Below, one piece after another: positions 22,701-30,366 of a DNA stretch of 64,000 bases. Origin of the DNA: Perna viridis (lineage: Eukaryota); NCBI GenBank assembly GCA_037379345.1, contig CM074519.1, forward strand, positions 25,756,103 through 25,820,102, in the 5' to 3' direction. Position 1 is the stretch's first letter; every line of letters starts with the position of its first letter. Under the pieces are notes generated by a model. It saw only the letters and a list, made by a program, of their open reading frames with translations, was not told the origin of the DNA and did no database searches. A program made the position numbers and the translations under genes.

Positions 22701-25700
22701 TATAACAAATGTATTTGTACACCTAAAATATTTCAGCAATCAAATTGAAATTACATTGAACTTGTCTTTCTATGTCAGGAACACATTCCTTTTCTGATTT
22801 TTAAGTGTTATAAAAGCGATATTTGTTTTTACTTTCCGTAAATCTGCAAGGTCTCTTTTGAAGAAAACTTCATAATCATTAAATGTAAACTAAACAAAAC
22901 TGTTATTTACTCTTTTTATTAAGTGTTTTTAACATTAAGATAATTTAAACTTTCCAGAAGTTTCGATTCAGCAGTAAATTGAGTATTCTAAAAATCTATA
23001 AACCAATGTGTGATGGCAAAATTGAAGGATCACCGAACTTATAGAAATATTGTATTCCTCCACACCTTCCTAGTTGTTGAAAACAATATATAATTATTGA
23101 CATGTGAACTATGAATGCTTGTAAGAATTATTCCAATTTGATATATGCAATCTCTGTGCAATTTAAAAGTGATGCTCATTTATAAATAGGTTTGTGATCT
23201 GATGGGATCATTGACTGGTAAAAGGAGTGTTGTGGCTTGTGCTCAGTGTTGTAAAAATCCACCTGGTACTGACGGTGCACCATGTAACGCCAGGCTTTGC
23301 AATGAAAGTAAGATTTATTTGAATTATTATTTTTTGAGTATGCCTTAGAACGCACATTATCTTAAAATGTTTTATTGTCCTATTTATCCATATCATGGAT
23401 TACAAAAATATTTCTATGTCTTAGCATTACTTTTCGTGCCAATTTTGAATTTCCGCACTATCATGTTTTTTTCATGCCATTGCATTAATCCCTTTCAACT
23501 GTACTTAACTGAAATGTTAGGTTTTATGACATACAAATCGCTCAGATGATATAAATCCCATTTTTGAACAAAAGACACGGCACGGTATCTAAAGTCTTTT
23601 CAATTGTTAGAGTTCCGATCATTTTAGTGTTCATCATACATATTCAATAAACAATATATCTAAGAAGAAAAACCTGTGCTAAAGTATTATTCAAGCCTCA
23701 TCACCACAACACTTAAAAAGAAAATTCAGTTTGAGAAGATTTTAACTATTAGTGACCTCATAAATTTACGTATTGATAGTTTTTCTTGATACTTTTTTGT
23801 CTCGAAAATATATAATATGGCTCATTGAAATGTAAATTGATAAGAGAAATACATTTAGAAGGACCTAGATAAAAAAGGAATTAGAGTGTTAAATCAGGTG
23901 TAGAAAAGATTGCAACGAAAATGAAATTTATAAAAGATTTTTGAAAATGATTTTTATAGGCATTAGAAAAGATTGCAACAATATAAAATAAAAGATTTTT
24001 TGAAAAAGTCAACAATGACAACAGACAACTACAATGAACACAAAGTGATGGCAATAGCTCACACTGACCTTCGTATCAGATGCGCTTTAAGATACGATGA
24101 GAAAACCAACCTCTTCTAACTAAATCCTGTTACACAGAGTGTTAGTTTAAAACGCCAGACTTTGATTAATATAAGTTTTAATTAATCTGAATTAAATATT
24201 ATCTATTGGAATAGAATGTAAACTTGACCTGTAACTTATCATTGCGAACTAATCATGTCATTATCTGCAAGCGTTGAAGGAAAAATCCTTAGAACGATTA
24301 TTTCTGTAAATTTCTGTAAAGTTCAAGGCCCATAATGTCAGTAAAACATCGAAGTGAAACCAAACACAAACTTGTATTGTAACTTATCACTTTTAATTTA
24401 TAATAAAAATCATGTCAATATCTGCAAATGTTCAGAAAACAATGTCAGGAAAACGGTTATATCTGTGAATTTTGATGATTACAGAGCCCGTAATTTCGGT
24501 AAAAATTATCGAAAAGTATACTTGTCCTTTAATTTATCATGGTGAACTTATTAACCAAAAAAAATTCAATATCTGCAAATGTTTAAAAAAAATTCCAGAA
24601 AACTTAAGATGGACTGAAGGACTGACGGTCAGACGGACGGGTCAAACATATTTTACCCTGCGCAACTGCATTGCGTGAGGCGTAATTATTTAAGCTCAGA
24701 TTTCTTCTCCCTTGAAATTAAGAGAACCTATATTCCATAACAGATGTAAAAGATTAGTACTGCTACTGGAGTTACGCACAATCAGGTGATAAAGGGCAAG
24801 TGATTCTTTACAATTACGACATACTGTAAGATGAAATATTGCATGAAATCAGTCAAGAACTTAAGCCAAAATTTTGTATGTCATTTGACCATAAGGTCAA
24901 AGGTCATGTTCAAAAGTCACACACCTTAATTGATACATGACACTCAACCTTGGCGTGAAATACACACATACCAAATGTCAGATATCTTAGTAAAATGGCA
25001 AAAAAGTTATGGCACAGGCAAAACTTTGGTAATATTTTGCCAAAATGTGTATCTTATATGACCATGAGGTCGACAGCTTATATTCAGGTAAAATTTCATC
25101 TATTCTGGTACGCAACACTCCACCTTGAGAGGATATACCAACATACTAAATATTAGAAGTCTAGGTCAAAAAGACAAAAAGCGTTATGGTATGGACAAAT
25201 TTTGTATGAATGGCGTCAAACTTTGGTATGTTATTTGAACATGAGGTCAAAAGTCAAGTTCAAATGTCAACCACCCTAGTATGTGGTGCCTGGCCTTCAG
25301 GTTTTATAATCCCATACCAAATATCATATGTCTAAGTGAAAAGACAAAACGATTTTAGCCCAGACAAATTTTTGTCTGGTATTTGGCCAAAATTTTGTAT
25401 GTCATTTGATCTTGGAGTTAAAGGTCAAGGTCAAAAGTAATCCTATCTTTAACATTACACTTTACCTTAATGTGATTTACTTACACACAAAAAAATCAGA
25501 TATCTTGGTAAAATGACAAACAGCAGTATGGCCAAGACAAAGTTTTTATGGTATTTTGCCAAACTTCTATGTATTTGTACTCGGGGCCAAAGGTCAAGGT
25601 CAAAGGTCACCCACCTAAAACATTACTCCCTGCCTTGGTGTGATATACTTAAATGCCCAAGGTCATGTATATAAGTAAAAAGACCTAATAATAATGGCTC

Positions 25701-28700: not shown

Positions 28701-30366
28701 TCTCATCGTCTTTTGTGTTACTTGTATCTTTAATGGTTTCGTATTTTTACTTTTAGGTATGTGATGTAATATTGAAAAGTTATCTTGATACGCATGGTGG
28801 AGCAGGAAAACGTTTTGTCGATCATGGTGGTATAACATTATGCGCAGCGTGCTGTAATGCAGCTGTTCATAATAATTGTAACAAGGATACTTGTCAAAAT
28901 GTTCGAAAACGTGAGTGTATCTACATTAACATTGAGAATCCGCTACATCCTACCAATTTAATAAGTATTGGGTATTCATGAATATACAAACAGAAAAAAA
29001 GGCCAGAATGAACTCCACACCAACAAGGAAGTAAGCGTCAACAAATTGACGAAAATATAATGCAGTAGCAATGTACACATGATAAATACGAAAAAGTACA
29101 AATATCAAAATTAGCTCCTGTTAATGGTTTGGAAGGGATTGTTTTTGTTCATAGGGTGTGCTCCCGATTTGAAGTCTCGAAATTGGCAAGGTAGAAGTTA
29201 AGTTTAGTTGTTTGATTTTGCGTTTATAAGATTTTTAAAGATATTTATTACGTGTATTTTAGAGCTCAACAGCGAAATACGTGAGCGCAAAAATAATAAT
29301 CTAAAGATAGCAACTCAGTAATACATATTAAGAAAAAAAACTAATCTACAATGTACATCATTACATAATGTACACGTATCAATACCTAAACGCAATCCAT
29401 ATATAACGCATTACACTACATGCCTTGATTTTTATAGTTCTTATTTTTGTTTAGTTCATACTTGTAACACCCACACTATTTGTCAATGACGAATTTATGT
29501 TTTTCTTCACTTTTTGTGGTTAGTCACAATAAAATTTCCAATAGTGTTTGTGTTTTTATATTTTGCAAGTGAGTTCTTACTTATAAAATAATATAAGGCA
29601 AGCACTTCGAACTTTTTCTTATTCCCCACGTCATCATAAAGGGCTTTTATAAAACAAGACAAATAAAATAACAAAGAAACAGAAAAAAAACTTACCAATT
29701 ACAAACTAACAATCTTACAAAATATAAACAACAAAAACGACCAAAAAAAAACCAAACAAACAAACAAACAAAAAACAAAAACAAAAAACAAAACAAAACA
29801 AAACAAAAATAATAATAATAAAAAATAATAAAAAAAAACAGCATATCCCTTCAAAATAAATCATAGTTAGTTAATTAATGAATCTGTAAAGATAGCAGAA
29901 AAAACAGCATGTTTTTAAGGATTATAGATTTGTTTGGGTTCTTAATTAAATTTATGATACTGTCTCAAATAGATAAGTACAATCATTAGTATAACATACA
30001 CATTTATATATTACTATTATATGCATAAAAGTATAATATTTGTGCAATGAAATACACCTATGTTGGTCAAAAATATTTAAAAAAAAAAATAAAATAAATA
30101 AATAAATAAATAACTAGTATGTTAAGTATGAACATTTTGCAAGATTAAGTAAATGTTCTTAATTTTATGTATATGTATATTGAAAAAGCATTGTTTGTTC
30201 GGTAGGTTTTTCTTCACCGTGAATCACTTTAATATGGACAGTGTCTGAATTGTATATGGACTGATACTTAACTATCTTTGCGTACATATGTTTTTTTGTT
30301 TCAATAACTTTACAATTTGTTTCCATTTCAGTTCACACATGTAACAACGCCACTATTTGTGGATAA
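19768..30366 (+). CDS. Secreted two-domain Ly6/uPAR (three-finger)-like cysteine-rich protein, 223 aa, 9 coding exons
   Basis: Exons 19768-19780, 20174-20212, 21071-21153, 22561-22632, 23190-23307, 26718-26806, 28346-28414, 28757-28910, 30332-30366. All introns are GT-AG with consistent phases; total 672 nt. Protein: MALIGIILLLEFCGATLS-LKCMSCNSASNIVECMVYTMTCSDNNEECFLDITTLESLETAYSAGCRSKAVCDLMGSLTGKRSVVACAQCCKNPPGTDGAPCNARLCNE-KPIDSRTCGICDRVSDPTKCTVSQSCQPHEMCKIDQIFSDGNVIYQLGCELKTVCDVILKSYLDTHGGAGKRFVDHGGITLCAACCNAAVHNNCNKDTCQNVRK-LHTCNNATICG*. Signal peptide and LU hallmarks (LxCxxC start, GC, CC...CN). AATAAA near 30432. Confidence 0.88.
20174..20212 (+). CDS. LU-domain gene coding exon 2 (signal-peptide core GIILLLEFCGATL)
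   Basis: ttctctccag acceptor, gtaagt donor, phase 1-1. Confidence 0.75.
21071..21153 (+). CDS. LU-domain gene exon 3 (LKCMSC...CSDNNE)
   Basis: ttcag acceptor, gtgcgt donor, phase 1-0. Confidence 0.88.
21386..21484 (-). mobile_element. Degenerate tRNA-derived SINE head (intronic)
   Basis: Aligns by eye to 57580-57670 (ggtcg.tccctc.gcgg ... atggcaa.accgcctg ... ctaga.cactcgac). Confidence 0.55.
22561..22632 (+). CDS. LU-domain gene exon 4 (ECFLDITT...AGCRSKA)
   Basis: caacag acceptor, gtaagt donor, phase 0-0. Confidence 0.88.
23190..23307 (+). CDS. LU-domain gene exon 5 (VCDL...GKR...CAQCC...CNARLCNE)
   Basis: aatag acceptor, gtaaga donor, phase 0-1. Confidence 0.9.
24190..24690 (+). mobile_element. 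Helentron-associated (HINE-like) element remnant
   Basis: Internal diverged repeats (cttgacctgtaactt / tcaatatctgcaa), a GACG-type microsatellite at about 24625-24640 and a terminal hairpin gcgcaactgcattgcgt. This layout is typical of bivalve HINEs. Confidence 0.45.
24866..25890 (+). repeat. Tandem array of about 172-bp satellite-like units (about 6 diverged copies) with the GGTCAAGGTCA motif
   Basis: caaa(a/c)tt..tatgt.atttga(c/t) recurs at about 24867, 25041, 25217, 25388, 25560 and 25727. Confidence 0.85.
25910..26443. mobile_element. TTAA-flanked non-autonomous DNA transposon (same family as 7876 and 53021)
   Basis: Right end tgcatgattcttaggtgaactgctac-ttaa; internal ctacatatttttattttt(t)gatat is shared with the other copies. 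Confidence 0.6.
26718..26806 (+). CDS. LU-domain gene exon 6 (KPIDSRTCGIC...CQPHE)
   Basis: Poly-T..tatag acceptor, gtaaag donor, phase 1-0. Confidence 0.88.
28346..28414 (+). CDS. LU-domain gene exon 7 (MCKIDQ...LGCELKT)
   Basis: ttttcag acceptor, gtatgt donor, phase 0-0. Confidence 0.88.
28757..28910 (+). CDS. LU-domain gene exon 8 (VCDV...GKR...CAACC...CNKDTC)
   Basis: ttttag acceptor, gtgagt donor, phase 0-1. Confidence 0.9.
30332..30366 (+). CDS. LU-domain gene terminal coding exon (LHTCNNATICG*)
   Basis: ttccatttcag acceptor, phase 1, TAA at 30364-30366, AATAAA about 65 nt downstream. Confidence 0.75.

Follow-up and report, generated by a model that had tools for sequence, protein, structure and literature searches.

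A two-domain LU gene

The window analysed here is a stretch of 64,000 nucleotides from contig CM074519.1 of the mussel Perna viridis (assembly GCA_037379345.1). It carries on its plus strand an intact 10-exon gene, reconstructed from the window sequence, that encodes a 223-residue precursor in which two domains of the Ly6/uPAR (LU) superfamily each hold a Gly-Lys-Arg motif. Judged by its sequence and those of its homologues, the product belongs to a mollusc LU subfamily in which finger III holds a prohormone-type site that is strongly conserved, and there the domains are probably cut and amidated.

Spliced contigs support the gene model in 5 of 5 contig runs (X1, X2, X9, X11 and X12, carrying five study codes). 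Contigs from X1, X2, X9 and X11 cross all nine GT..AG joints, and those from X12 cross the eight coding joints, lacking only the joint in the 5' untranslated region (UTR). These runs were taken as RNA by guess; their contigs skip the GT..AG introns. No spliced reads were found in 3 of 3 raw RNA runs (one study; 19-25% of each read), a result that is not evidence of silence. We conclude that the gene is expressed and is a real LU superfamily member. An alternative last exon near 32250 was rejected because the contigs place the last exon at 30332 (Table 1). All five transcript contigs have T at position 28817, where the reference has G, so that Phe takes the place of Val two residues past site 2; the reference G is either a rare allele or an assembly error. 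The new N-terminus that an earlier note on this DNA gave for this site, FVDHG, holds for the reference and would read FFDHG in the animals behind the five contigs. The Gly-Lys-Arg codons show no change among the listed differences between contigs and reference.

Table 1. Exons and predicted sites of the LU gene, and its degenerate copy, in window coordinates
Feature	Position	Strand	Basis or remark
5' untranslated exon, 3' end only	19589..19619	+	joint 19619/19731 GT..AG in X1, X2, X9, X11
Exon 2: holds the ATG (19768) and the beginning of the predicted signal peptide	19731..19780	+	sequence and contig joints
Exon 3: completes the predicted signal peptide (residues 1-18) and ends in phase 1	20174..20212	+	joints; hydrophobicity only
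LU domain 1, exon a: Cys1-4	21071..21153	+	sequence and contig joints
LU domain 1, exon b: Cys5-6, finger II	22561..22632	+	sequence and contig joints
LU domain 1, exon c: Cys7, finger III, CxxCC, CN, extra Cys	23190..23307	+	sequence and contig joints
Gly-Lys-Arg site 1, residues 79-81, predicted convertase/amidation site	23217..23225	+	translation, homologue alignment
LU domain 2, exon a	26718..26806	+	sequence and contig joints
LU domain 2, exon b	28346..28414	+	sequence and contig joints
LU domain 2, exon c	28757..28910	+	sequence and contig joints
Gly-Lys-Arg site 2, residues 178-180, predicted convertase/amidation site	28805..28813	+	translation, homologue alignment
Last exon: short two-Cys tail, stop ending 30366, 3' UTR; no transmembrane or GPI-type tail	30332..30450	+	contigs
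Degenerate partial copy of domain 1	42272..46651	+	exon b truncated near 42680; exon c 46529-46630

The precursor (223 aa, 27 Cys) is made up of a hydrophobic N-terminus of ~18 residues, two 12-Cys domains and a two-Cys tail. A hydrophobicity scan finds no hydrophobic stretch after the N-terminus and hence no membrane anchor, and the protein is predicted to be secreted by way of an N-terminal signal peptide. Both domains have the ten conserved LU Cys with an Asn after the tenth (CN), plus two extra Cys that co-occur across domains (both in 238, neither in 18, discordant in 2), which is consistent with an added disulfide. By homology, we infer that the canonical Cys pair as in other LU domains (1-5, 2-3, 4-6, 7-8 and 9-10). 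The LU consensus comprises the ten Cys, the CN and flanking phase-1 introns (PMC6600238; for this and all other sources cited by PMC number, our statements draw on part of the text). Both mussel domains are flanked by phase-1 introns, as in the LU family, and each is spread over three exons, interrupted by phase-0 introns ahead of Cys5 and of Cys7; the typical, non-obligatory LU split into two exons at the tip of loop 2 is present in neither.

Assignment to the LU superfamily depended on deeper alignments, shallow queries having failed: Pfam recognised no LU family in single exons or in 4 close homologues, a single-exon homologue search gave no match, and neither did a PDB sequence search with an 8-sequence profile. 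A profile of 101 homologues matches PSCA (E 7e-6), GPIHBP1, LYPD1, SLURP1 and LYPD6, and Pfam UPAR_LY6 or Toxin_TOLIP is matched at E<=0.01 by 33 of 60 homologues (hand-chosen, mostly long ones), many of these matches lying below cut-off. Among named proteins, the nearest are uncharacterised ones from Mytilus with up to 49% identity, pointing to a mytilid mussel as the likely source. A first fold from the 8-sequence alignment was unusable (pLDDT 34.6); an AlphaFold2 model of a Mytilus homologue, P0011, reached pLDDT 89.6, and Foldseek with this model placed LU proteins on top (uPAR, E 3e-4; PSCA, TM(target) 0.67; LYPD1, 0.61). The ESM Atlas gave leads below 0.9 only, mostly LU-type clusters. 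The three-finger fold of both domains is thus supported by modelling. With PSCA, LYPD1, LYPD6, SLURP1, uPAR and C4.4A, the mussel protein shares the ten-Cys scaffold ending in CC...CN, the modelled three-finger fold, the phase-1 flanks and an occurrence in clustered genes. It departs from the named LU proteins in its two additional Cys, in the spread of each domain over three exons, in the lack of a GPI signal and in a conserved basic motif of processing type inside finger III.

Conservation and grammar of the finger III motif

The motifs GGTAAAAGG (23217-23225) and GGAAAACGT (28805-28813) both read Gly-Lys-Arg on the plus strand, in frame within the spliced exons of one gene, just as the earlier note had them. 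Both lie between Cys7 (VCD) and CxxCC at the tip of finger III; the equivalent position claimed for them stands with respect to these landmarks and does not extend to the distance from Cys7, which is not fixed (7 residues in domain 1 vs 14 in domain 2). G[KR]R occurs 31 times in the 127,996 six-frame positions of the window, and the composition-based probability of one in each loop by chance is ~1e-5. The two domains are old duplicates, and the real evidence lies in conservation among homologues more than in this figure. In the P0011 model both sites fall in loops between the finger-III helix and the last strand, so that a helix is predicted before and a strand after each; the Gly stands 3 and 6 residues past the helix end, and the domain-2 site loop is the least confident region (pLDDT 65).

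Among 36 close homologues, 67 of 68 finger-III loops contain [KR]R and 50 of 68 contain G[KR]R, duplicates kept. Over 52 distinct complete domains, [KR]R is found in 51/52 in finger III vs 1/52 in finger II, and G[KR]+R in 45/52 in finger III, where shuffles give a mean of 1.5 and a maximum of 6. A representative search returned 242 clusters (50% identity) at E<=1e-3; the best 150 of the 242 contained 141 new representatives, 119 of which fit the Cys scaffold (22 dropped) and yield 216 domains. In this more distant set, drawn from the best 150 of 242 clusters, [KR]R occurs in 159/216 domains in finger III vs 20/216 in finger II, and G[KR]+R in 128/216 vs 1/216 (shuffle mean 6.2, maximum 14). 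When finger III was deleted from both profile and targets, 131 of 141 proteins still scored E<=1e-3, and the motif was present in 129 of 217 domains. The shuffles, the finger-II control and the finger-III-deleted profile led us to reject chance occurrence and search bias as the source of the motif. Of 30 representatives whose identity was checked, 26 could be named, every one of them a mollusc: 21 bivalves (mussels, oysters, pearl oyster, clams, Dreissena and unionids) and 5 abalones. Scallops occur among the close homologues. Conservation in molluscan homologues, a test on which the earlier note had let its proposal depend, thus extends across bivalves and abalones, with flanks of the convertase/amidation type.

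These flanks were counted over 274 distinct finger-III loops and judged against the general site rules of convertases and PAM. Basic runs end in Arg in 258 of 285 cases, though Lys makes up 41% of the basic residues. V, I, L, M or P directly follows the site in 12/258 (30% background), and a hydrophobic residue precedes the Gly in 114/179 (30% background). The motif floats between 2 and 31 residues from Cys7 in loops of about 10 to 41 aa, and the spacers after the Gly-basic site are 1-18 aa long and 24% acidic. In the 59 loops with at least two basic runs, Gly stands before the first run in 48 and before the last in 7. Amidation predicts Gly at the first and not the last site, since only the first leaves an end on a retained chain; a role in flexibility or charge does not predict this asymmetry. 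The finger-III motif follows the grammar of convertase cleavage and amidation.

A rival explanation is that the loop is cut and that its Gly serves turn flexibility or helix capping, with no amide formed. Gly is common in exposed turns, and it is missing before the first run in 50 of 224 basic-run loops (present in 177). The first-versus-last asymmetry of the two-site loops and the position of the Gly beyond the end of the modelled helix speak against this explanation, which we regard as quite unlikely. Alternatively, the LU domain could be a protease inhibitor that offers the loop as bait to, or blocks with it, trypsin-like proteases or convertases; an exposed basic loop on a disulfide-rich secreted scaffold would suit such a role, and one relative is fused to a Kazal domain. 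Yet the range of loop lengths is unlike that of canonical inhibitor loops and the Gly asymmetry would go unexplained, making an inhibitor very improbable.

Cleavage followed by amidation is the reading to which we give a probability of roughly 0.7, and cleavage inside the domain, whatever the fate of the ends, is highly probable. Several observations weigh against it. The best 150 of 242 matches were ranked by a profile that contained the motif, and the domain and loop counts are not phylogenetically independent. No basic pair is present in 50 of the 274 distinct loops, about a fifth, so the domain does not need the site. The model is that of P0011, a Mytilus homologue 49% identical to the window protein, and its domain-1 loop, with only ~7 residues from helix to strand, is short and modelled with fair confidence (pLDDT 83 for the block), which makes enzyme access uncertain. 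At site 2 the Arg is followed by Phe, seen in 1 of 179 sites. Human PSCA has Gly-Lys-Lys in the same loop, and we know of no cleavage there. This PSCA motif and the short domain-1 loop would suit an uncleaved basic motif at the finger-III tip that binds a receptor, membrane or glycan, much as the RGD loop of dendroaspin is a finger-tip binding motif. Finger tips are indeed the usual LU binding surface (PMC6600238). Such a motif remains unlikely: the Arg-last order, the avoidance of aliphatics after the site, the floating position, the second sites with their spacers and the Gly only before the first run are unexpected for a charge patch or an epitope of fixed geometry.

Paralogues and neighbouring genes

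Every one of the 9 intact exons aligned from the mussel genome (on contigs C9 and C4, the gene's own two included) keeps G-[KR]-R, with the Gly encoded by all four codons and placed 6-23 residues after Cys7. The motif is lost in two Cys-deficient copies, one in locus L010 and the other the degenerate domain-1 copy in the window. The latter (42272-42709 and 46442-46651, plus strand) retains 72-77% identity and is interrupted by repeat-like DNA at about 43200-45600; its exon c, at 46529-46630, has lost the GKR and one Cys. On the minus strand, two neighbouring paralogues each combine a single LU domain, bearing Gly-Arg-Arg, with ShK exons after it.

Further paralogues were seen on C4: a two-domain one at 36.13 Mb (L014-L015) has an extended loop rich in Gly, Ser, Ala and Thr, and its site is doubled around a spacer of 3 residues; the locus at 48.27 Mb (L016-L017) has three motif-bearing domains. 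At the end of the window, an ShK-like exon (63151-63264, minus strand, continuing into L008-L009; Pfam E 4e-5) is likely the 3' part of a neighbouring paralogue. The convertase P-domain family is matched 23 times in the genome and copper monooxygenases 19 times at exon level, clustered on C7 and not assigned to individual enzymes; the families are possibly expanded, and their presence counts in favour of the processing proposed below. Elsewhere in the window, a 594-codon open reading frame with a ubiquitin-like region (minus strand, 55140-56921) has a death-domain exon downstream (52077-52388; E 2e-13), and the two are likely one immune-signalling gene. Repeats were observed in an intron at 24865-25890, with three diverged direct copies, and at 35700-36200, with very high coverage in the RNA runs.

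Proposed processing and its meaning

In the processing that we propose, a prohormone convertase would cut the finger-III loops after Lys-Arg. The enzyme may be of the PC1/3 or PC2 type: furin favours Arg at P4, and as neither site has a P4 Arg, a convertase of the regulated pathway is more likely than furin. A carboxypeptidase would trim the basic residues, and PAM would amidate the ends exposed at Gly. Three disulfide-linked chains are predicted, residues 19-78, 82-177 and 181-223 (~6.5, 10.3 and 4.5 kDa), of 60, 96 and 43 aa with 7, 12 and 7 Cys; the uncut protein would be about 22 kDa, and the last chain carries one N-glycosylation sequon. Provided that all Cys are paired, the odd counts imply an inter-chain bond at each junction; by homology, each junction would be held by the canonical 7-8 disulfide, which is essential if single LU domains are to fold (PMC6600238). 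The extra Cys pair would likely staple the freed last strand. Many relatives have another basic site, and cutting there as well would set a short spacer free, much as happens in proinsulin. The nicked, disulfide-linked and amidated three-finger protein that the earlier note had envisaged is supported by conservation, flanks, fold and Cys counts, with cleavage itself deduced from sequence.

Proinsulin- and relaxin-type precursors are cut at basic pairs and lose a spacer while their chains stay disulfide-linked; the likeness to the mussel protein is one of scheme only, the fold being unrelated, the spacer measuring 0-18 aa in the mollusc family and the mussel cleavage predicted. Closer in fold are amphibian sodefrin precursors and SPFs, pheromones with a two-domain architecture; like them, the mussel protein is predicted to be secreted and belongs to the three-finger family, and some of its homologues bear the UniRef label 'Sodefrin-like factor'. 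In one newt lineage, the C-terminal tail of sodefrin precursors arose by frameshift and contains Lys-Arg sites, at which the precursors are cut to release a peptide (PMC4776240). SPFs are uncleaved. The mussel-type site lies inside each domain and is common to bivalves and gastropods. Snake three-finger toxins have dibasic propeptides, C-terminal amides and Gly-dependent amidation (PMC12390062), with processing at the N- or C-terminus, outside the domain, whereas the mussel-type site is inside it. Dibasic processing and amidation at the ends of three-finger proteins are already known from these two systems, and only the intradomain site is new. The same Gly-dibasic processing has been predicted, not shown, for mussel gill myticalins (PMC12294457). 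According to a 2026 survey of invertebrate LU proteins, a mollusc genome has ~83 genes of the three-finger type, and LU domains occur fused to fibrinogen, Ig, MAM or C1q domains (PMC13719153); the consulted portion of its main text does not mention cleavage or amidation. Nothing relevant was found in the portions of PMC11595613 and PMC6425005 consulted, and the literature searched, which leaves out most subscription papers, describes neither this motif or family nor any cut within an LU domain.

What the product does is the least certain part of the proposal. Among 60 scanned homologues, the domain is fused to C-type lectin (7), fibrinogen (5) and VWA (4) domains, and further partners of homologous domains are Ig, SRCR, CUB, MAM, TSP1, Kazal, EGF and ShK; the fibrinogen, Ig and MAM architectures of PMC13719153 thus recur among homologues of the window gene. 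The lectin, fibrinogen, VWA and ShK fusions favour an extracellular defence, recognition or matrix role over a neurohormone or venom. No support was found for the toxin role once suggested, the named homologues being bivalves and abalones. Tentatively, and with more doubt than belief, we suggest that maturation in gland cells may free a helical arm with an amidated end, and that this arm may serve a mucosal or extracellular module of defence or recognition as its binding surface. A broader hypothesis, to which we give just under an even chance, is that an ancient and large mollusc three-finger subfamily matures like insulin: a convertase would open finger III, a C-peptide would often be dropped and PAM would amidate the freed helix, so that processing would switch on the ligand and the fused lectin, fibrinogen, VWA or ShK domains.

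Three-finger domains are usually treated as intact, protease-resistant single chains. If true, a convertase and amidation site kept within the fold in both bivalves and gastropods would give the three-finger superfamily a mode that depends on processing, and many mollusc LU-lectin, LU-fibrinogen and LU-VWA proteins made as bacterial recombinants would be immature forms. For an uncharacterised family of 242 clusters at 50% identity, our analysis predicts exact masses and termini that can be sought in mollusc proteomes.

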